A stretch of DNA of 63,869 bases, filler included, from Acidimicrobiia bacterium (GCA_046759765.1; 5 parts of 5 records of this genome joined end to end with filler, not necessarily neighbours in it); one strand, 5' to 3'. Positions 7,080 through 63,830 are shown, numbered from the whole stretch's first letter. Numbers and translations are program-made. The notes: a model not told the origin generated them from the letters alone.

Positions 7080-7964
7080 ATAGCAGTCGACGTGTCGGAA
7101 CGCCCCGATCTGGCCGAACTCGAGGAGCTGGCGCGGCAGGCCCGAGTGGCGATCGTGAAAGCCATCACCCACGCCGAAGGCGGCCACCTCGGCGGCCCTT
7201 TCTCGGCTACCGACATGCTCACCGCTCTGTACTGGCGAGTTTTGAACATCCGGCCGGAGGAGCCGCTCTGGCCGGAGCGAGATCGCTTCATCCTCTCCAA
7301 GGGCCATAGCTCGATCGGTCTCTACGCGGTGATGGCTCTCCGCGGCTACTTGCCTACCGAGGAGCTCTACACCTTCGATGCCATCGACTCCCGCCTGCAA
7401 GGGCATCCGGACATGACGGTGCTGCCCGGCATCGACATGTCGTCCGGCTCTCTTGGTCTCGGCTTTGCCGGTGGGGTGGGCATAGCCCTCGGAGCCAAGG
7501 CGATCGGAGCGGATTTCAAAACGTACGTGATGGTCGGCGACGGAGAGTGCAATGAGGGAATCGTGTGGGAAGGTGCCCACGTCGCCAGTCGGTACGGCTT
7601 GGACAATCTGATCGTCGTGCTCGACCACAACAAGCTGCAGCAGTTCGGCTGGCGGGGGGAGACCGTCGAGGTGAGGATCCCTCCTTACGTCGGCACGCAG
7701 CTCGCCGACCGCTGGAAGGCTTTCGGCTGGCAAGTCGTCGAAGCGGACGGGCACGACATGAGCAGCTTCCTCGAGGCCGTTGAATCGGTGCAGGACGCGG
7801 AAGGACCTGCAGCCGTCGTTGGCCACACCGTCAAGGGAAAGGGCGTGTCGTACATGGAGAACGCCTTCCAGTGGCACAGCAGGGTCCCGACCGACGAGGA
7901 GTTCGACCTGGCTATGACCGAGCTCGGCGAGCTGCCGGCCAAAGGCGGAGACGAGGCCGAATGA
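7080..7964 (+). CDS. Transketolase, N-terminal (ThDP-binding) subunit of a split enzyme; start uncertain (ATA 7080 or GTG 7092)
   Basis: GGHLGG, RDRFILSKGH, LQGHPD, SSGSLG, GDGECNEG..WE, HTVKGKG. Confidence 0.92.
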   Translation: MAVDVSERPDLAELEELARQARVAIVKAITHAEGGHLGGPFSATDMLTALYWRVLNIRPEEPLWPERDRFILSKGHSSIGLYAVMALRGYLPTEELYTFDAIDSRLQGHPDMTVLPGIDMSSGSLGLGFAGGVGIALGAKAIGADFKTYVMVGDGECNEGIVWEGAHVASRYGLDNLIVVLDHNKLQQFGWRGETVEVRIPPYVGTQLADRWKAFGWQVVEADGHDMSSFLEAVESVQDAEGPAAVVGHTVKGKGVSYMENAFQWHSRVPTDEEFDLAMTELGELPAKGGDEAE

Positions 7965-8911
7965 CAGTCGAGATGAGCCAAGCGCTGCGGGTCACCTTCG
8001 GCGAGACCGTTGCCGAGCTGGCCAACAGCGATCCGAGGATCGTGGTGGTCGACGGCGACCTCGGCAGCTCGACACGGGCAGATATCTTCGAGGAGGCCCA
8101 CCCCGACCGCTTCTACCAGATGGGAGTGGCCGAGCAGAACATGCTCGGGGTGGCCGCCGGAATGGCCACACTCGGGCTGATTCCGTTTGTCAGCACATTC
8201 GCTTGCTTCGCGGTTGCGAGAGCGCTCGACCCGATCCGAGTGCTGATCGCTCAGCCCAACCTGCCCGTCAAGATCATGGGCGGCTATGCCGGACTGCTGG
8301 CCGGCATGACCGGCAAGACCCATCTGATGTTCGACGACGTTTCGATCATGCGGGCTATGCCCCACATGACCGTCGTTGCGCCTGCCGATGATGTCGAGGC
8401 TCGCCAGGCGCTGGGAAGCATCGTGGACGATGAAGGTCCGACGTACATGCGGCTCACCCGGCAAGAAGCCCCTCGCCTTTTCGATCAGAATTATCAGTTC
8501 GACCTCGGCGACGCCGTCGTGCTGCGCGAAGGAGACGATGTAACCTTGATCTCCAGTGGAGTCCAGTCGGTAAGAGTCGCCGAGGCGGCCGAGATCCTCG
8601 CCGCGGAAGGCGTGGACGCCTATGTGCTTCACGTGCCGACGATCAAGCCCATGGACATAGAGGCCGTGGTCGCGGCCGCCGAGCGGACAGGGTTCGTCGT
8701 CACGGTCGAAGAGCACACCATCATCGGGGGTCTGGGAGGGGCGGTCGCCGAAGTCCTCGCCGAGCACTCGCCCACTCGGATGAGAAGGCACGGCATCATG
8801 GATATCTACGGCGAGTCCGGACCGGACGATGCCCTCCTCGAGAAGTACCGGCTGTCCTCGAGCCAAGTAGCGACGGTGGTACGCAAGCACCTCGACGAGC
8901 GGGCCGGATAA
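7961..8911 (+). CDS. Transketolase, C-terminal subunit of a split enzyme
   Basis: GVAEQNM, GKTH, TVEEHTIIGGLGGAVAE; ATGA overlap with N-subunit. Confidence 0.92.
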   Translation: MTVEMSQALRVTFGETVAELANSDPRIVVVDGDLGSSTRADIFEEAHPDRFYQMGVAEQNMLGVAAGMATLGLIPFVSTFACFAVARALDPIRVLIAQPNLPVKIMGGYAGLLAGMTGKTHLMFDDVSIMRAMPHMTVVAPADDVEARQALGSIVDDEGPTYMRLTRQEAPRLFDQNYQFDLGDAVVLREGDDVTLISSGVQSVRVAEAAEILAAEGVDAYVLHVPTIKPMDIEAVVAAAERTGFVVTVEEHTIIGGLGGAVAEVLAEHSPTRMRRHGIMDIYGESGPDDALLEKYRLSSSQVATVVRKHLDERAG

Positions 8912-8969
8912 GCGTGCGAACCCGGCGAAGCGGCGGTCGCGCCCCCGTCATGGAGCCCGGGTACAGCCC

Positions 8970-9755
8970 ATGAGCCAGTTGGATATCTACAGCCTGGACG
9001 GCCTCGTGGCGGTGGTGCCAGGCGGTAGTGGGGGGATCGGATCGTATCTTTCGCCCGCTTTGGCCCGCGCCGGCGCCCATGTCGCGGTGGTCGGACGATC
9101 CGCCGAACGTGCACAAGCAGTTGCCAATGCCATTGAGAGCGACAGGGGCAAGGCGCTGGCGGTGTCCGCGGACGTAACGGATCGAGCGGAGGCCGACCGA
9201 GCGGTGGCGGAGGCCCACGAATACTTCGGTCGGATCGACATCATCGTCAATTGCGTCGGTGGCGGGGCCGGGAAGGTGCTCTTTCCTGCGCACGAGTATC
9301 CGGACGACGCCTGGAAGTGGATCTTCGATTTGAACTTGACGAGCGCTCTCCTGCCGACACAGGCCGCGGTCCGCGCCATGATCGAGGGCGGACGGGGCGG
9401 ACGTGTCCTGAACATCTCGTCGGTTCGCGGACAGCTTGGGATCGACGCCGGCTACTCGGCTTACGTGGCAGCCAAGGGAGCGATCGACGCGTTGACCCGG
9501 CAAGAGGCAACGGAATGGGCCCGGTACGGCATAACCGCCAACGCAATCGCGCCCACCTTCGTCGATACGCCACAGGTGGCAATGCTCCTCGATGATCCCG
9601 ACTTCAAGGCCAGCATCGTGAACCGAATTCCGCTCCGGAGGGTCGGCACTCCAGATGATCTCATCGGGGCGGTCCTTTTCTTCTGCTCGCCGGCCTCGTC
9701 GTTCGTAACGGGACAGATCCTCACGATCGACGGAGGCCTTACGGCAACACAGTGA
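8970..9755 (+). CDS. SDR oxidoreductase (gluconate 5-DH/KduD-like)
   Basis: PGGSGGIG, NISS, YVAAK catalytic motif, NAIAPTF, VTGQILTIDGG. Confidence 0.9.
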   Translation: MSQLDIYSLDGLVAVVPGGSGGIGSYLSPALARAGAHVAVVGRSAERAQAVANAIESDRGKALAVSADVTDRAEADRAVAEAHEYFGRIDIIVNCVGGGAGKVLFPAHEYPDDAWKWIFDLNLTSALLPTQAAVRAMIEGGRGGRVLNISSVRGQLGIDAGYSAYVAAKGAIDALTRQEATEWARYGITANAIAPTFVDTPQVAMLLDDPDFKASIVNRIPLRRVGTPDDLIGAVLFFCSPASSFVTGQILTIDGGLTATQ

Positions 9756-13232: not shown

Positions 13233-13332
13233 NNNNNNNNNNNNNNNNNNNNNNNNNNNNNNNNNNNNNNNNNNNNTTAATTAATTAANNNNNNNNNNNN
13301 NNNNNNNNNNNNNNNNNNNNNNNNNNNNNNNN
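13233..13332. other. Artificial contig linker
   Basis: N44-TTAATTAATTAA-N44 (stops in all six frames). Confidence 0.99.
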
Positions 13333-13455
13333 GGCCTCGACCAGTTGCTTCGACAAGGTCTCGTCATTGGCGAATACCCCGGCCTGAAAGTTGCCGAGAG
13401 AAACGATGATCGCGCCGGTGAGCGTGGCAAGGTCGATCATCGCCTTCGGCTTTAT
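13333..13455 (-). other. Leucyl aminopeptidase (M17) fragment at contig end, probably chimeric
   Basis: [20 protein letters not shown]...AGVFAND matches the PepA IDxATLTGA motif. Confidence 0.6.
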
Positions 13456-13690
13456 CGCAGCGTTCAACACGCTCAATCTCGCCGAAGAGCTGGTCAACAC
13501 CCTGTTCATCGGGCTCGTAGCCACCATCGGCGTAACGCTGGCCGTTGCCTTCGGCGTCGGAGGCATCAAATCGGCCGAGGAGTGGTGGAAGAAGGTCCTT
13601 CCTGGCGCGATGAAGGACCGCGGCGCTGGCCGGCCTACAGATGTAGGCGGCAGCAGCCCACCGCCCGGCGGAGGAATGGACGACAGCTGA
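13436..13690 (+). CDS. C-terminal fragment of a TM-helix-repeat/MscS-associated (CmpX-like) membrane protein
   Basis: [36 protein letters not shown]; 5' part absent. Confidence 0.6.
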
Positions 13691-13721
13691 CACAACTGGC
13701 TTAGGGCTCTGGCGCTCCGCG

Positions 13722-25664: not shown

Positions 25665-26458
25665 TCAACCCGATCTCAAGCGCGAATAGTCGAGAAACCC
25701 GGTGGGGCCGATGTTGAGCGCCTCCGAGAAGGGAGACTCGCCGCGACTCGTTACCCCGTCGCGATAGAAAACCCAGGCCGGTTCCCACCACAGTGGGATC
25801 GTTACGACGTCAGAGGCCCATAGATCCTGGATCTCGAGGTATAGCTCGGAGCGCCTCGTCTGATCGAGCTCGGACGCGGCCGCGCCAACGAGGTCGAGAA
25901 GCTCCGGATGGCTCAGACCCTCGGTCGGCTTGCCGGTATCGGGATCCGAAATGTTGGTACCGAGGCCGCCGAAGGCTGTGAAGGGTTCAACGAAAGGATT
26001 CGGATCGAAGTAATCCACGCTCCAGCCCAGCAGAGCAATCTCGTGGAAGGTCCCGGCCAACAGCTGGGGGATGTAGGTGTCCCACTCGGTGGTACGGGTC
26101 TCTACCTGTATCAGACCCGTGGCCTCCCATTGGTCGGAAATGGCAGCTACGGGGGCAATGGCGGTGTCTCCGTAGCGGTCCGAGGGATGGGAGATCTCCA
26201 CCTCGAGCGGCGCGGCTCCGCTGTAACCAGCTTCAGTCAGGAGCTGGACTGCGGTCTGCGGGTCGCCGGCCGCAGCAAAGGGAGTGGAGGCACCGAGAAA
26301 GCCGGGTGGGATCGGCGAGCGAAGCATCTGTCCGGTGTTGCCGAGCACCGTCAACAAGGCTTCGCGGTCCACCGCGGCCGCCAAGGCCTGGCGAACTGCC
26401 AAGGAATCGGTCGGGGCAATCGTGTGGTTGATCACCAGAACCCTTATTGGTCCTGCCC
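25665..26458 (-). CDS. ABC transporter substrate-binding protein (family 5), 5' truncated
   Basis: VRQALAAAVDRE, LLGWSVDYFDP, RSELYLEIQ...IPLW. Confidence 0.85.
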
Positions 26459-26558
26459 NNNNNNNNNNNNNNNNNNNNNNNNNNNNNNNNNNNNNNNNNN
26501 NNTTAATTAATTAANNNNNNNNNNNNNNNNNNNNNNNNNNNNNNNNNNNNNNNNNNNN
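26459..26558. other. Artificial contig linker
   Basis: N44-TTAATTAATTAA-N44. Confidence 0.99.
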
Positions 26559-26817
26559 TGCGCACGAGTTCGGATTCACCACGGTCGATTTGGCGGGGCC
26601 GAGCCGGCGACAGCCGCTGGTGCTGGCCCGGCAGATCGCTATGTACCTGTGTCGCGAGCAGACCGACCTATCCCTGCCGAAGATCGGTGCTTTATTCGGA
26701 GGACGTGACCACACGACCGTCATTCACGCGATCGACAAGATCAAAGGCCTGATGAGAACAGATCGCAGCACGTTCGAGCGAGTCACGGCCTTATCGCAGC
26801 GGCTGAGGACAACATGA
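26559..26817 (+). CDS. dnaA: Chromosomal replication initiator DnaA, C-terminal domain IV only (5' truncated)
   Basis: [32 protein letters not shown]. Confidence 0.95.
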
Positions 26818-58023: not shown

Positions 58024-59780
58024 TATCGGCACGCAGGTCTCCCACTACGGTCGATATCTGGACGAGGTCGCACCTCCCGTGACGGTGCACGAGCTGCAGG
58101 ACCTAGCAGAGCCAGCAGCTTTCGAGTCTCGGCGCCCACCACGACGGCGAGGCTGGAAAATAGCGCTCGTCGCCGGCGCCGCGGTACTTCTAGCCGGGCT
58201 GGTCACGGTCCTGGCCTTTCAGCTGGCTGATGAGCAACCGCCGGTTGTTACCGAACCCCCACCGACCACCACCATAGAGCCAGGACCCGACGTTTCCGCG
58301 CTGATTGCTTCGGTTGAGGGAAGCTTGGTAGAGGTGCAGGCGGTCCAAGAGATCGCGGGTGATGAGGCCGGCTCCGTAACGGTGGGCTTCGTAGTCGATG
58401 ACGCAGGACACGTTTTGGTACCCACCTCGTCCTGGGACCCGTCCTCCGCACGCCTAAGGGTCGTAACGCGTGACGGCCTTAGTCGACCAGCGGTGATCCT
58501 CGCGCGTGATCAGGACGCCGGAGTTGCCCTATCGAGACAGAGCCCGCCGACTTGGAGCCCCTTAGCGTGAGCTCTTCCGCCCAGCTGGAGATCGGGGAGT
58601 CGGTCGTAGCCATCGGATATGACCTGACCGAGCAGGCCCCGACGTCGATCGGCGGCCCTCTCGTCGCCCTGGAAGCAGAGGTGATTGCCGTTGGTCGGAC
58701 CCTGCAGACTGGCGAGGCGGAGCCCGGAAGGCTGCTCGAGATCGACGCGGTCATCATCGGGGTCATCGTGGACTCGGCCGGAAAGGCGCTGGGAATCACC
58801 GTTGGGTGGTCTAGCGACACCAGCGTCGTTCTGTCGATGGACCGAGCGGCTCGGCTGCTGGACTTTGCCCAGGCTTCATCCGACGGTCTGGTCGAGATGC
58901 GACCGTATGAGTGTCGGTCCTTTGCCAATTGCCCAACGGACCTGCTCGAGATCGACAGAGTCATCTATGGCCCGCGCTGCTCGGGCGTAAAGCCCGAGCT
59001 GGTGGAGCAGCCGTACGCAGTTGGAGCACCCGGGCTCGGCTACAAGGAGGCCTGGACCATCCAGGGAGCCAGCCCTGCGGTGGTCGTTGCCCTAAGAGCA
59101 CCCTTTGGCAGCGGTTGCTCCTGGGGGGTCTCCGCATCGGGCTGGCAGGCAGCCTTCGCCTTTAGTCAATCTGATCCCCAGTTGGCCCTGGAGCGGGCAT
59201 GGGCGGAGTGCGAGGCGCTCGAGAACCCGGATCCAGATCAGGACTGCTCGCTGGGCCGCGCGGTGCGCTGTGACATGCCGGACGGAGCTACGGAGTGGGC
59301 GGGCCTGACGACGACACTATTGGGTTCACCTACTTTCCGGAGGAGGTAATTGAGATCAACGACCAGGTAGGCACCGGAGCCGGGCCGCCCTGGCGGGCAG
59401 ACCCATTGGCCACTGCGATCGAGTACTGGTCGGATAGGTCGTCAGAGTGCGTGGAGGATTTCGGCTCCGAGCATCGCTGCCGACTTGGATTGAAGCTGGT
59501 CTCAAGCGACGACGGGGTAGCAATAATCGAAGGGCTACTTCAGTTCTCCTGGTTCCACGATGAGGACTTCCCGGGGGAAATACGGGGCGAGCACTACGAG
59601 AGTCGTGCGCCTCGAACGGTAGTGGTACAGCTCATTCCGGGCGGTCCGAGCTGGTGGGTGGTGGAAGAGTGGTGGCTCCAGGAGGAAGAGACCGATGATG
59701 GGGTGGATGAGGCCGGTCGCCGCCAATCGGACCGCATCTGGCAGCAGTACCCGACCGTCGTCTTCGACAACGGCGTCTGA
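58013..59780 (+). pseudogene. Putative anti-sigma membrane protein with degenerate trypsin-like domain, split by two frameshifts (~58530, ~59270)
   Basis: Three overlapping ORFs in successive frames; homology-like continuity DQDAGVAL/IETEPADLEPL...IGESVVAIG. Confidence 0.55.
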
Positions 59781-59822
59781 GCAAGGCATCCAACTAGCCG
59801 CCGTGCTACAACCTCTCCTGCC

Positions 59823-60638
59823 ATGACCTCCGAGCAAGAAGAGTGGAACGAGCATTACCGCATCAGCGACCATCCCATCGTCCTGGAGATCGAACGTCGC
59901 GTTCACGGGACCGACTACGGGATCAACAGCTTCACCACTCGTGACCAGGCGGAGGAACTGGTCGAGAAACTTGGCTTGACACCGGAGAAACGGCTGCTCG
60001 ATCTTGGTTCCGGCTCCGGCTGGCCGGGCCTTTACCTCGCCAAACAGTCCGGGTGCGCGGTGGTTCTGTGCGACCTCCCGGTGACCGGGATGGATCGAGC
60101 TCGACGCCGGGCGCTAAGAGATGGCATAGCCGACCAGTGCCAGTTCGTAGTGGGCTCCGGCGACAAGCTTCCGTTCCGCTCGGGCACTTTCGACGCCGTC
60201 ACGCATGCCGACGTGCTCTGTTGACTGTCAGAAAAGCTCTCCGTGCTGAGAGCCTGCCGGCGGGTCCTCCGAGAAGGTGGACGGCTCGGATTCCAGGTCA
60301 TCCACGTCGCCGCCGGCCTCAGCGCGCGTGACTACCAGCTTGCGGTCGTCTCTGGCCCGGACCACGTAGGAGCGGAGGCCGGGTATCCCGAACTGCTCGA
60401 TTCAGCGGGCTTCGAAGTGGAAGAAGTAGCCGATGTGACCGATGAGTACCGACGGATCCTCGCCGCGCGGATGGAGCACAGCGAGCCTTTCTTAAACGAG
60501 CTCCGCTCCATCTACGGCACTGATGTCTTCAACGAGAGGTGGGCCGCGCGAGCCAAGGCCATCGAAGCAACACAGGCGGGCTTGCTGAAGCGTGCCTCGG
60601 TGTTTGCGACGCGGCCTGAAGATGAGGGCGCGATTTAG
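59823..60638 (+). CDS. Class I SAM-dependent methyltransferase, probable selenoprotein (UGA at 60222-60224 = Sec134)
   Basis: LLDLGSGSG motif I, FDAVTHADVLC-UGA-LSEKLSVLRACRRVLREGGRL in one frame; SECIS-like hairpin at 60225-60260. Confidence 0.8.
60225..60260 (+). promoter_or_regulatory. Bacterial SECIS-like element
   Basis: Upper stem GCTCTC/GAGAGC (60236-60253) with loop CGTGCT, 11 nt after UGA; lower stem CTG.CAG/CTG.CGG. Confidence 0.65.
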
Positions 60639-60649
60639 GAGTCGGCCGA

Positions 60650-61072
60650 CTAGCCGGCGGCCAGATTCGTGAGCAACTCAGCCGAGTTGTCTATGGCCAG
60701 GATGTTGCCGAACGGGTCGATAAACCATGCTGTCTTGACTTGGCCCTGCGTTGCTACGCCGTTCACTGTTTTGAGACCTATCTCTGGGATGTCGTACTCC
60801 TCGAACTTGACCCCCTTCCGCCGGAGTTGCTTGACCGTGCCCTCAACATCCTCGACGCCGAACGCGCAAACGGTGCCCGTCGAGCCTGCGGGCGTGGGCC
60901 GTTCGTAGACATATAGGTAGGTGCTGTGTCCGCATTTGTAGGCCATGCCCGGCTCCTCGTCGGCGAGCTGACCCAGCTCCTCAAATCCCAGCGTTTCGCC
61001 ATAGAACTCCCTGGCGCGTTTCAGATCGGTGACCACGAGCGTTGCGGTCGCCAACGCGTCCCGCAGGCTCAT
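60650..61072 (-). CDS. VOC/glyoxalase family protein
   Basis: VTDLKRAREFYGETLG, LRRKGVKFEEYD, AWFIDPFGNIL. Confidence 0.9.
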   Translation of the reverse strand: MSLRDALATATLVVTDLKRAREFYGETLGFEELGQLADEEPGMAYKCGHSTYLYVYERPTPAGSTGTVCAFGVEDVEGTVKQLRRKGVKFEEYDIPEIGLKTVNGVATQGQVKTAWFIDPFGNILAIDNSAELLTNLAAG

Positions 61073-63714
61073 CTTTCGCTCCTTCTCTTGGACTCGGGTA
61101 TCTCGTCGAGGACGTACGTGACGATCTCGTCCAGGCTCATGGCCTGTCCCTCGGCGAGCAGTGCTTCCGCCTGATTGAAGCCGAGAGCGTCGAGAGCATC
61201 ATCCAGGCCGGGTAGGTCGCGGCGAGGGACCTCGGCCAGGCCGGCCCCACTTGTCTCCCGCAACCGGTTGGCGGCGCCCAGAAGCCGAACCGCTCGCTCT
61301 TCCTGGCCATCCTGCAAAGCAAGAGTCGTGAACAGATCGACGTGGAAGAGGACTCCAGTGATATCTCCAACTTCAGCGAAGAGCTGTATCCCTTCCTCCA
61401 GGAGCGGGCGGGCCACCTCGGGTCGTCCGTCGCTGACCTCTACGTTGCCCAACATGTATGAGGCCCACGCGCTGTGGAACGGCTCATCGAGCTCCTGAAA
61501 GAGCTGCCGGCTCTCATCGAATAGCTTCCGCGCCTGGCTCCAGTTCCCGGCGATCCAGCGCGCGCCGGCCAATCCGTACACTGCCTTGGCGATCCCGACC
61601 TGGTCGCCCAGCTCCTGCGAGATGGCGAGACTCTCGCTGTAGAGCTGATCGGCTTTCTCCAAGTCGCCTTCGCTACCGAAGGCGTATGGGTAGCCCAGAT
61701 TGCAAAGAGCGTTGGCGATCTCCTCTTGGTCGCCTGTATTTCTCATCAGGTCGAGGCTCTGCTGGTACAGGTCCCTGGCCGATTCCATGTCCCCTTGCCA
61801 GTAAGCAAGGCCGCCGGCCGCCTCGAGCGCCTTGGCCCGATGACCCAGATCGCCGCCTGGCAACGCGAGTGTCTCACTCAGTCGTTCGGCTGCCTCATAG
61901 AGATGACCCCGGATCTGCCAAAAACGCCACAGAGCAAAGCCAAGCCTCAGGGCCACATCGGTCTCTTGCTGTGCGAGTGCCCAATCGATGGCGGCTCGAA
62001 GGTTGTCGTGCTCTAGCTCGAGCTGTTCGAGCCACCGGACCTGGCCGCGATACAGGAGGTGAGGCTCGGCGTTCTTCGCTAGCTCCAGGTAGGCGAAGGC
62101 GTGCCGACGACGGATCTCGTCGATCTCGCCGAATTCCTCGAGACGCTCCAGGGCGAATTCTCGGATGGTCTCCAACATCAACACTCGAGGCTCTTCGGCT
62201 GCCTCCAGTGCGCGAAGCAGACTCTGATCGATCAGCATCTCGAGGCCCTCGAGCACCTCGACTCCGAGCTCTTCGGAAGGACCACACACCTGCTCGGCCT
62301 GGGTCAGGGAAACGCCGGCCCGAAACACCGACAACCTGGCCAGGAGACGCTGGCCGGGTTCGGAGAGCAGGTCATAGCTCCAGGAGATCGTGTCGCGCAG
62401 AGTCTGCTGTCGTTCTGGCAGATCGCGTACTCCGCCTGACAGCAACTCCAGTCGGCTCTTCAACCGGGAGGCGATGGCCTCCGGACTCAACAGTCTCACC
62501 CTGACGGCGGCGAGCTCGATAGCCAGCGGGAGACCGTCGAGCTGAACCGTGATGGCGGCTACCGCGGGAGCGTTGCCGGCTGTTAATCGAAAGTCGGGCC
62601 GTGCAGCTGAAGCTCGTTCGACGAACAGAGCCACTGCGGCATAGTCCGCAAGCGACTCTGGTGGTTGAGGCCCGTCCAGATCGGGTACAGCCAGGGGAGG
62701 CACCGGTAGCTCCTGCTCCCCTGAAACGTGAAGGACGGCCCGGGATGTGACCAGGGTTTTCAGGCCGGGAACCGCCTGGAGCAGCTCAGACACTTGGGAG
62801 GCTGCGGGCAGGAGCTGTTCGAAGTTATCGAGTACCAGCAGCATCTGTTTGTCGGCCAGATATCTCTTCACGTGATCCAGTGGAGGACCGGACAGCTGGG
62901 TCAGCGCGAGGGAGGTTGCGATTGCGGAAGGAACCAGCTCGGGGTCGGCGATCGGTGCCAACGGAACGAAAAAGACCCCGTGTTTGAACTGTTGTGCTGC
63001 TTCGGCTGCTACCTGAATGGCCAGACGGGTCTTGCCCGTGCCACCGGGTCCTGTGAACGTGAGCAGGCGATTACGACCGAGTAGCTCCACTCCGTTAGCC
63101 AAGTCCCGGTCGCGGCCCAAGAAGCTCGTCAGCTGGACCGGCAGGTTGTTAGGAACGGCGTTCAACGACAAAAGCTCTGGGAACACCGAGGGGAGATCCG
63201 GATGGATCAGCTGATAAACGTGCTCAGCGCGACGCAGATCCTTAAGCCGGTGCTCTCCTAGGTCGGTGAAGTCGGCTCCCTCCGGAGGGTCTTCTTGTAC
63301 CAGGTCCCATGTCGCCTGCGACAACAACACCTGCCCGCCGTGGGCCACCGACATCAGCCGGGCTGCCCGGTTGAGTGGCGGTCCGAAGTAATCGGCGTCG
63401 CGCTCTTCGGCCTCGCCCGTGTGGACTGCGGTGCGGACTCTGACAGATGTTTCGCCCCACTGCTGTTGGGCTATAGCCAGTTGGAGGTCGATCGCCGCGC
63501 CTACGGCTGGCTTGGCGCCTTGAAACGCCGCCGCGAAAGCGTCGCCGGCAGTGGTGAACACGTAGCCCTCGTGATCTTCGATCACCTGCCGGAGGATTTG
63601 GTCGTGGCGTCCGAGCGCCACCTTCATTTCTTCCGGATGTTCTTCCCACAGACGCGTCGAACCCTCGACATCGGTAAAAAGAAACGTGACCGTCCCGGAC
63701 GGCAGCTCAGGCAT
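61069..63714 (-). CDS. Class III nucleotide cyclase-STAND NTPase-TPR protein
   Basis: FLFTDVEGST, GDAF, NRAARL; GPGGTGKT, LVLDNFE, LDGLPLAIELAA; C-terminal TPRs. Confidence 0.92.
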   Translation of the reverse strand: MPELPSGTVTFLFTDVEGSTRLWEEHPEEMKVALGRHDQILRQVIEDHEGYVFTTAGDAFAAAFQGAKPAVGAAIDLQLAIAQQQWGETSVRVRTAVHTGEAEERDADYFGPPLNRAARLMSVAHGGQVLLSQATWDLVQEDPPEGADFTDLGEHRLKDLRRAEHVYQLIHPDLPSVFPELLSLNAVPNNLPVQLTSFLGRDRDLANGVELLGRNRLLTFTGPGGTGKTRLAIQVAAEAAQQFKHGVFFVPLAPIADPELVPSAIATSLALTQLSGPPLDHVKRYLADKQMLLVLDNFEQLLPAASQVSELLQAVPGLKTLVTSRAVLHVSGEQELPVPPLAVPDLDGPQPPESLADYAAVALFVERASAARPDFRLTAGNAPAVAAITVQLDGLPLAIELAAVRVRLLSPEAIASRLKSRLELLSGGVRDLPERQQTLRDTISWSYDLLSEPGQRLLARLSVFRAGVSLTQAEQVCGPSEELGVEVLEGLEMLIDQSLLRALEAAEEPRVLMLETIREFALERLEEFGEIDEIRRRHAFAYLELAKNAEPHLLYRGQVRWLEQLELEHDNLRAAIDWALAQQETDVALRLGFALWRFWQIRGHLYEAAERLSETLALPGGDLGHRAKALEAAGGLAYWQGDMESARDLYQQSLDLMRNTGDQEEIANALCNLGYPYAFGSEGDLEKADQLYSESLAISQELGDQVGIAKAVYGLAGARWIAGNWSQARKLFDESRQLFQELDEPFHSAWASYMLGNVEVSDGRPEVARPLLEEGIQLFAEVGDITGVLFHVDLFTTLALQDGQEERAVRLLGAANRLRETSGAGLAEVPRRDLPGLDDALDALGFNQAEALLAEGQAMSLDEIVTYVLDEIPESKRRSER

Positions 63715-63830
63715 TCTGACCCATTGCGAAAAGGTACACGGCACCCGAGGGTGCCGCCTCTTGAGTCTGACGCCAAGCTTGTACTCTTCAAGCGCTGCTG
63801 GAACAAGAGGCGCATTACAGACCGGAATCG

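Follow-up and report, generated by a model that had tools for sequence, protein, structure and literature searches.

Does the TGA at positions 60222–60224 of a stretch of Acidimicrobiia bacterium DNA (GCA_046759765.1; 63,869 nucleotides in all, hereafter the window) end a gene, or is it read as selenocysteine (Sec) in the middle of one? The ORF track places two open reading frames (ORFs), 59823–60224 and 60243–60638, in the same frame. A preliminary description regarded them as parted by TGT-TGA and as the halves of a 271-residue selenoprotein, and the window sequence and ORF list agree on the arrangement: one open frame runs on the plus strand from ATG 59823 to TAG 60638 and is broken only by this TGA, the first ORF ending in TGT-TGA (60219–60224), in which TGT encodes Cys133. 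Past the TGA, the frame continues uninterrupted from 60225 to the TAG at 60636–60638; position 60243 is merely the first GTG 3′ of the TGA, not the point where the frame reopens. Translation through the TGA gives 271 residues with Cys133 followed by TGA as codon 134, as had been claimed, and the product (predicted mass of approximately 29 kDa) reads ...FDAVTHADVLCULSEKLSVLRACRRVLREGGRL... across the junction. On sequence grounds, we consider it highly probable that 59823–60638 is one S-adenosylmethionine (SAM)-dependent methyltransferase gene whose UGA is decoded as Sec. The two ORF-track fragments, in all likelihood, belong to one gene.

The methyltransferase frame and its relatives

The predicted methyltransferase fold extends across the TGA, as the preliminary description had argued. 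Pfam Methyltransf_11 matches residues 59–155, a span that includes the codon, with 66.9 bits (cut-off 21.2; E = 2.6e-18), and Methyltransf_25 scores 59.9 bits against a cut-off of 27. Gly62, Gly64, Gly66 and Asp84 are invariant among 42 aligned sequences and represent the glycine-rich motif I and the acidic end of β2; in the Rossmann-like model, motif I is located at strand 57–61 and the following loop. The AlphaFold (AF2) model built on alignment A1 has a predicted local distance difference test (pLDDT) score of 92.1 and a predicted template modelling (pTM) score of 0.89. Foldseek relates the model to AtmM, RebM, TleD, SDMT, the plant and Plasmodium PMT enzymes and MitM, with TM values of 0.70–0.78 and E values down to 1e-19, and by sequence the protein comes closest in the PDB to MitM (1.9e-16) and AtPMT2 (1.8e-13). 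Judged by its sequence, the window protein is a class I SAM-dependent methyltransferase. PMT, MitM, RebM/AtmM, TleD and SDMT resemble it in architecture, including a C-terminal helical lid, whereas the PMT/MitM/RebM group is just 15–27% identical to it and has no counterpart of its conserved Cys78 and Cys133.

The model also places the TGA codon within the fold. Strand β4 comprises residues 123–129 and is followed by the loop Asp130–Glu137 and a helix from Lys138, such that the Cys133–Sec134 pair is predicted to lie in the loop directly after β4. In class I methyltransferases, the loop after β4 (the motif IV region) faces the SAM methyl group. The earlier proposal that a Cys-Sec pair sits near the SAM/substrate pocket agrees with the model, which puts the dyad in the catalytic loop. 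In the phmmer alignment, C133–U134 stands opposite the L-H of AtPMT2 (DTILHI) and the I-H of MitM (ESIIHM); the PMT/MitM group carries His after β4, whereas the window protein has Cys-Sec there instead. In PfPMT, the His at this site (His132) is catalytic; PDB entry 3ujc is an H132A mutant.

A protein search returned 575 matches at E ≤ 0.001, and the best 120 of the 575 (approximately 270 residues, 43–50% identical to the window protein) served as the set of Cys-forms. The preliminary description had posed the residue carried by homologs at the TGA column as a check. This residue is Cys in 41 of 41 homologs in the first alignment and in all 120 of the best matches, within an invariant D-V-L-C-C-L motif, and in these 120 it is never Trp, Gly or His. 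TGT or TGC becomes TGA by one base change, and the Cys/Sec pair alone therefore does not rule out a nonsense mutation.

To this comparison we added a scan of 185,579 species-representative genomes with the pattern FDA, 13 free bases, DVLC, TGA, L, for which about one chance match is expected (our arithmetic, from 17 fixed bases, 6 two-fold positions and 1.2e12 positions). The scan yielded 112 loci, of which 110 are homologs; since the pattern fixes the motif, this number is a lower bound and the invariance of the motif columns arises by construction. Beyond the TGA, 106 of the 110 loci have at least 100 further codons without a stop, three reach the sequence end and one (L009) is frameshifted, so that the second check posed at the outset, whether relatives keep the TGA with the downstream half in frame, was answered positively. 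Because three assemblies carry two loci each, the 110 loci represent about 107 assemblies. By record labels, which were counted by hand and may be wrong for metagenome-assembled genomes (MAGs), about 82 loci belong to Actinomycetota, mostly Acidimicrobiia but also Pseudonocardia, Frankiales, Streptosporangiaceae and Nocardiopsaceae; the others are labelled Gemmatimonadota (12), Chloroflexota (4), Pseudomonadota (4), Acidobacteriota (3), Eisenbacteria (1) or unclassified (4). Two carriers are cultured, P. adelaidensis JCM 18302 (L082) and P. asaccharolytica DSM 44247 (L096), and hence Sec insertion and enzyme activity are directly testable in Pseudonocardia. The window genome is not among the 110 loci, and over its central 201 residues the window protein shares no more than about 53% identity with any of these homologs, which indicates that the TGA has survived deep divergence.

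Protein databases hold traces of the same arrangement. The fragments P0122 (99% identical, from an independent source) and P0124 (76%) both end in ...DVLC at the same codon, and the TGA is therefore not a private assembly error. Both halves are listed as proteins (P0122 and P0123), and the presence of database proteins of about 133–140 residues ending in ...DVLC indicates that gene callers split the gene, an outcome that the preliminary description suspected to be routine. Annotation systematically renders the gene as two fragments or as one truncated "methyltransferase domain-containing protein", and the family is therefore missed by annotation pipelines, in counts of selenoproteomes and in reconstructions of metabolism.

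A FastTree phylogeny of 72 Sec-forms (homologs with the TGA) and the 120 Cys-forms, rooted at the midpoint, can be explained by two Sec/Cys switches. Of the Cys-forms, 77 make up one clade and 43 another, and the window belongs to a Sec clade of 19 members (support 0.79), the others being mostly labelled as Acidimicrobiia MAGs. Sampling in this tree is biased, in that the Cys-forms are the best matches to the window and the Sec-forms are pattern matches, and some supports are low (0.44). The gene very likely forms part of a deep and widespread Sec-form lineage whose sister forms are Cys-Cys. C133 is present in 72/72 Sec-forms, where the search pattern fixes the column, and in 120/120 Cys-forms; C78 is found in 65/72 and 120/120, and C145 in 41/72 and 120/120, respectively. 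The Cys-forms usually also possess an N-terminal C-G-C, with Cys at position 28 in 75/120 and at position 30 in 74/120, and this CxC is absent from all 72 Sec-forms. The presence of Sec seems to accompany fewer auxiliary cysteines (window residues 28–32, 78 and 145).

Several individual loci deserve a remark. L032 and L033, the two pattern matches rejected as homologs, are chance matches separated by 2004 nt, both in a repeated sequence that is not homologous (...SFDANF*QDVFC-TGA-FAR...), on one contig labelled as a Rickettsia typhi MAG. In L009 (10031–10060), one A is missing from the spacer and the frame is broken, with the hairpin sequence intact, and L052 and L091 diverge out of frame 3′ of the hairpin; these breaks may reflect faulty assembly or genuine decay. 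In three MAGs, two different copies of the Sec-form occur, each on its own contig (L015/L029, L038/L058 and L010/L090), and represent either paralogs or mixed bins. The 138-residue protein P0141, labelled Acidobacteriota, ends in ...THADVI, one residue before the other fragments; it may have a Sec or stop codon at position 133, in a Sec-Cys order, or a contig end.

The hairpin 3′ of the TGA

The nucleotides that follow the TGA contain the hairpin described earlier, a perfect GCTCTC/GAGAGC stem starting 11 nt after the UGA with the loop CGUGCU. Its 5′ arm occupies 60236–60241, its loop (CGTGCT) 60242–60247 and its 3′ arm 60248–60253, and the calculated energy is −7.8 kcal/mol alone and −14.5 kcal/mol with flanks (52-nt stretch). 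For bacterial Sec insertion sequences (bSECIS), PMC13188914 gives a loop of 3–9 nt, a stem of 4–16 bp, a G in the first two loop positions, 16–37 nt from UGA to loop and a minimum free energy of at most −7.5 kcal/mol. The window hairpin lies within these quoted ranges, with a loop of 6 nt beginning C-G-U (G then U at positions 2–3), a stem of 5–6 bp, a distance of 17 nt and the energy of −7.8 kcal/mol.

The comparative analysis used alignment A2, which comprises the window and 108 loci (109 sequences, 107 distinct rows; L009, L107, L032 and L033 left out), spans the Cys codon to 45 nt beyond the UGA and contains no gaps. Columns 1–8 are fixed by the search pattern and their invariance is no evidence; column 7 is C in 109/109 sequences, though the pattern permitted C or T. 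All 109 sequences exhibit a hairpin of 5–6 bp with the loop CGUGYU after an 11-nt spacer. The six stem pairs are standard in 97.0% of cells, compared with 33–67% when the partners are slid by 1–3 columns (107 rows). The outermost pair is unpaired in 18 sequences, and pair 20–33 is U-A in 95 and U-G in 11. Pair 22–31 is U-A in 98 sequences, G-C in 9 and broken in none, the switch combining a Ser UCC to Ala GCC change with an Arg AGA to CGR change. The covariation score was reached by 0 of 500 shuffles; it reflects one pair with both sides changed, in 9 sequences, and may stem from a single inherited event. The RNAalifold consensus consists of a 5-bp core stem. The lower stem that the preliminary description let start right after the UGA was abandoned: RNAalifold finds none, and when the flanks were compared with shuffled flanks with the upper stem fixed, the mean z was −0.54, the window value was +0.47 and z fell below −1.5 in 20/109 sequences. 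Being unconserved and scarcely better than shuffled flanks, this element was dropped from the model.

Constraint is also evident at synonymous positions. In the 72 full-length Sec-forms, Leu139 is encoded by CTC in 72/72, Ser140 by TCC in 68/68, Val141 by GTG in 71/71 and Arg143 by the otherwise rare AGA in 63/72. The ratio of observed to expected codon entropy is 0.15 at codons 138–143, against 0.91 at 55 other conserved degenerate columns within these genes. Among the 120 Cys-forms, the five commonest residues at position 140 are A (79), S (15), P (13), E (4) and D (3). The hairpin is under selection as RNA. The preliminary description had named covariation and SECIS criteria as a further check, and the results agree with it, namely the exchange of U-A for G-C in 9 sequences, the values within the published ranges and the frozen synonymous sites. 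Like the fdhF-type SECIS of E. coli and the bSECISearch consensus, the hairpin lies in the coding region, follows an 11-nt spacer and has a G-U apical loop, but its stem is short (5–6 bp) and it has neither a conserved lower stem nor a bulged U. With its near-invariant 18 nt, the hairpin is an easy key for sequence searches and a compact SECIS from Actinomycetota to study.

Sec decoding and its alternatives

Besides the limits given above for the fixed alignment columns and the single covarying pair, several points weigh against decoding of the UGA as Sec. Taken alone, the fold of the window sequence is within chance (z = −0.22; 73 of 200 dinucleotide shuffles equal or better), and because it is indistinguishable from shuffles, the case for a real hairpin rests on the other genomes. 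The loop misfits the optional N1–N2 pairing of the commonest bSECIS loop pattern, and an Rfam scan of 59700–60700 with E values up to 10 found no SECIS family. A codon control based on Cys-form DNA was not obtained, as a tblastn search of plasmids with the natural Cys-form P0002 gave no match. When the 66 ORFs of the 64-kb window were compared with NCBIfam, selA, selB and selD were absent; the window contains no tRNA and hence no tRNA-Sec, and none of the tRNAs that flank the gene at 60 of the 112 loci is a tRNA-Sec. The sole Rfam match in the scanned interval, flavi_FSE (14.9 bits), was judged a chance match.

The lack of Sec machinery within the window would suit a relic, that is, a genuine family member whose host has lost this machinery and whose gene is decaying or ends at the UGA. 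The Sec trait is indeed patchy, and Acidimicrobium ferrooxidans is scored Sec-negative (PMC5029168 Table S1). The same table credits P. asaccharolytica DSM 44247, the cultured carrier of L096, with SelD, the Sec trait and 5 known selenoproteins; for two Ilumatobacter species the numbers of selenoproteins are 10 and 15 (PMC5029168), and a 2026 preprint describes Sec machinery throughout Actinomarina, placed in Actinomycetota. The gene itself argues against decay, with 137 codons after the UGA that contain no stop or frameshift, a perfect hairpin and a 99%-identical relative (P0122) that keeps the same arrangement. We regard the relic as quite unlikely, though the least improbable of the rival explanations.

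A pseudogene or sequencing error, in which a Cys codon TGY was mutated or misread to TGA to leave a dead enzyme and a 133-residue fragment only, is very improbable. It would require just the one base change noted above, the window is a draft assembly of joined contigs, and damaged relatives exist (a frameshift in L009, and later divergence in L052 and L091). However, the same TGA occurs at 110 other loci of no more than 53% identity with the frame open in 106, the downstream half combines conserved motifs with a coding-type GC content at third codon positions of 0.73, the nucleotides right after the TGA are frozen into the hairpin, and P0122 and P0124 stop independently at the same codon.

It is similarly hard to sustain that the UGA is read as Trp, Gly or Cys through reassignment or leaky readthrough. 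UGA-to-Trp reassignment has been reported in Eggerthellaceae, also Actinomycetota (PMC13462651), and the leak-prone UGA-C context is found in 109/109 sequences. In the window, however, TGA is the commonest stop codon and ends 22 of 47 ordinary ORFs, and a scan for in-frame TGA between coding-like stretches found this gene only, plus off-frame and gene-junction noise, which argues against reassignment of UGA. The residue aligned with the UGA is Cys and never Trp or Gly in 120 homologs, and reassignment would need no dedicated conserved hairpin at a fixed spacing. Finally, two polypeptides assembled after translation, an N-terminal half that binds SAM and a C-terminal half whose translation restarts at GTG 60243, are scarcely credible despite a GTG 19 nt past the stop and database entries for both halves, as the break would fall inside the Rossmann-like fold between β4 and the next helix, the restart would lose the six conserved residues L135–S140, and the GTG, which lies in the hairpin loop, encodes Val141 in the conserved peptide KLSVLR.

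The comparative data contradict a pseudogene, a read error, reassignment and a split into two polypeptides alike, and insertion of Sec at codon 134 is the preferred explanation. By analogy with the known bacterial pathway, the hairpin 11 nt 3′ of the UGA would act as a bacterial SECIS and recruit SelB with Sec-tRNASec to the ribosome paused at the UGA. The features of the gene are collected in Table 1. As a separate observation, the Longimicrobiales MAG that carries L079 has an array of 15 tRNAs (7599–9493) within 2.5 kb of the Sec-methyltransferase, none of which is tRNA-Sec.

Table 1. Coordinates of the putative selenoprotein methyltransferase gene and its elements in the window
Feature	Position	Strand	Remarks
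Complete coding sequence, predicted selenoprotein methyltransferase	59823..60638	+	271 codons including UGA as putative Sec134, then TAG
SAM-binding motif I, LLDLGSGSG, residues 58–66	59994..60020	+	Invariant Gly; Rossmann-like model
TGT, Cys133, vicinal partner of the predicted Sec	60219..60221	+	Cys in 120/120 Cys-forms and 72/72 Sec-forms
In-frame TGA, probably read as Sec134	60222..60224	+	Invariant Cys in homologs; TGA at 110 other loci
Spacer, 11 nt, UGA to hairpin	60225..60235	+	Same length in 109/109; first base C, giving the UGAC context
SECIS-type hairpin GCUCUC/CGUGCU/GAGAGC, codons K138–A144	60236..60253	+	Comparison, codon entropy, −7.8 kcal/mol

Family status, possible function and gene surroundings

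The window protein matched none of the NCBIfam models for selenoproteins or methyltransferases at their cut-offs. The best match was the DVU_1556 family methyltransferase NF045667, with 66.2 bits against a cut-off of 155; four Cys-form homologs scored 56–64 bits and matched no named family, and membership of the DVU_1556 family was rejected. A query of the ESM Atlas with P0002 brought up generic methyltransferase cluster names only. Methyltransferase-type selenoproteins in the table of PMC13188914 include arsenite methyltransferase (UxxG), MGMT, MduS (CxxU), methyltransferase/UXPK-star, ArsM/DUF2284 and ArsM/AhpD. The corresponding models were rejected for the window protein, with scores far below their cut-offs: 39.9 bits against 263 for ArsM (NF008823), 23.6 against 380 for MduS (NF045649), 40.6 against 460 for methyltransferase/UXPK-star (NF047649), 39.4 against 510 for ArsM/AhpD (NF041537) and 34.2 against 575 for ArsM/DUF2284 (NF041536).

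The position of Sec sets the family apart as well. The ArsM selenoprotein (NF008823/PRK11873; "methyltransferase UbiE/COQ5 family" in PMC5029168 Table S3) is likewise a Sec-containing class I methyltransferase with Cys homologs, and in both proteins several conserved Cys residues suggest a ligand site for a soft metalloid. In ArsM, however, Sec follows RVLKxGGR in the printed deep-Sep sequences and belongs to a UxxG motif, whereas the window Sec precedes this type of motif by 17 residues (counted to the GG of RVLKxGG) and forms a Cys-Sec pair. MduS, UXPK-star, ArsM/AhpD and ArsM/DUF2284 likewise contain a methyltransferase domain and were newly catalogued as selenoproteins from alignments of truncated gene models. 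MduS, UXPK-star and the ArsM fusions have CxxU or UxxG and 2–3 Sec each, whereas the window protein has one Sec, a CU dyad and no extra domain. The preliminary description was therefore right to find the motif placement unlike that of ArsM or MduS.

No protein with the DVLCU motif appears in the 2022 review, the GOS and Sargasso papers, the deep-Sep supplements or PMC5029168 Table S3, and full-text literature searches returned no description of the family, subscription-only papers lying outside this scope. Algal genomes encode a selenoprotein named "MT", whose sequence lay outside this comparison. Given the scores for ArsM and MduS, the placement of Sec and the negative literature searches, we file the family as probably new and not as ArsM or MduS; with no NCBIfam model at cut-off and no entry in the catalogues searched, the suggestion that it is undescribed has held. 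It is probably a genuine selenoprotein and a new selenoprotein family.

Bacterial selenoproteins are mostly thiol oxidoreductases or molybdo-enzymes, and it is unusual to find Sec in the catalytic loop of a methyltransferase. Vicinal Cys and Sec residues have precedents. Mammalian thioredoxin reductase has a vicinal Cys-Sec redox centre in its C-terminal GCUG. MbdU is listed as a "CU" metal-binding selenoprotein in PMC13188914. As in these proteins, a selenenylsulfide could arise between the adjacent Cys and Sec of the window protein, or the two residues could chelate a thiophilic metal or metalloid; fold and context differ entirely, the window dyad being located in a methyltransferase catalytic loop.

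These comparisons lead to a tentative functional proposal. The Cys133–Sec134 dyad may serve as a substrate-binding or nucleophilic centre, and the methyl acceptor may be a small, soft sulfur, selenium or metalloid species. It is conceivable, though doubtful, that the gene represents an uncatalogued and widespread selenoenzyme family in which the Cys-Sec dyad takes part directly in methyl-transfer chemistry, with sulfide, persulfide, selenide or a metalloid as possible acceptors; in that case, the dyad could carry a transient Se-methyl or selenenylsulfide intermediate. The family is distributed over at least 107 species-level genomes, whose record titles name five phyla and one candidate phylum, and it is frequent among Acidimicrobiia and other bacteria of soil and sediment. 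If this proposal is true, Sec would be linked, in aerobic Actinomycetota, to processes that volatilise or detoxify reactive forms of sulfur, selenium or arsenic.

Gene neighbourhoods were compared across 75 sources no shorter than 3 kb, namely the window and 74 loci, considering genes within 7 kb. Those that recur are ArsR-HTH-rhodanese regulators, grouped in one mixed cluster with other methyltransferases (17 loci), MFS transporters, often encoded immediately 5′ on the same strand (14 loci), ABC ATPases that include a TOBE domain (9 loci) and MBL-fold-rhodanese fusions (8 loci). L012 and L039 encode MBL-rhodanese, MFS and the methyltransferase on the same strand with an ArsR-type gene upstream on the opposite strand, and L072 has MBL-rhodanese, MFS and methyltransferase genes in the same order; these neighbours lie about 0.4–4.6 kb 5′ of the methyltransferase gene. 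MBL-rhodanese and MFS arrays of this type resemble operons for sulfide and persulfide stress. The ArsR-rhodanese, MBL-rhodanese and MFS neighbours, present at a minority of the loci, hint at a role in sulfur, selenium or arsenic metabolism, and the neighbours as a whole, as a lead only, at sulfur, selenium or metalloid chemistry. The window speaks against giving them more weight: its own neighbours (an ECF sigma factor, unknown ORFs, a glyoxalase and a cyclase-NACHT-TPR protein) offer no functional clue, and since no recurrent neighbour is present near its methyltransferase gene, we treat the neighbourhood as a mere lead.

Directly downstream of the methyltransferase gene, the minus-strand gene at 61069–63744 encodes an adenylate/guanylate cyclase-NACHT-TPR protein of 891 residues and is convergent with the methyltransferase gene; relatives of this protein occur near the methyltransferase gene in 3 other loci. 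At 26459–26558, two runs of N flank TTAATTAATTAA, a linker with stops in all six frames, which indicates that the window was joined artificially from two contigs. The junction cuts a solute-binding protein gene (25665–26435, minus strand) that matches just the C-terminal part of the OppA/DppA models, and on its other side leaves the last approximately 75 codons of dnaA (26590–26817), followed by dnaN, recF, gyrB and gyrA. The encoded GyrB is most similar, with 78% identity, to proteins labelled as Acidimicrobiia MAGs; the host is very probably an uncultured member of this class. A 136-residue ORF at 13285–13695 on the minus strand, of which about 45 residues match the C-terminal part of leucyl aminopeptidase models (approximately 500 residues), may be a gene remnant or a miscalled ORF.

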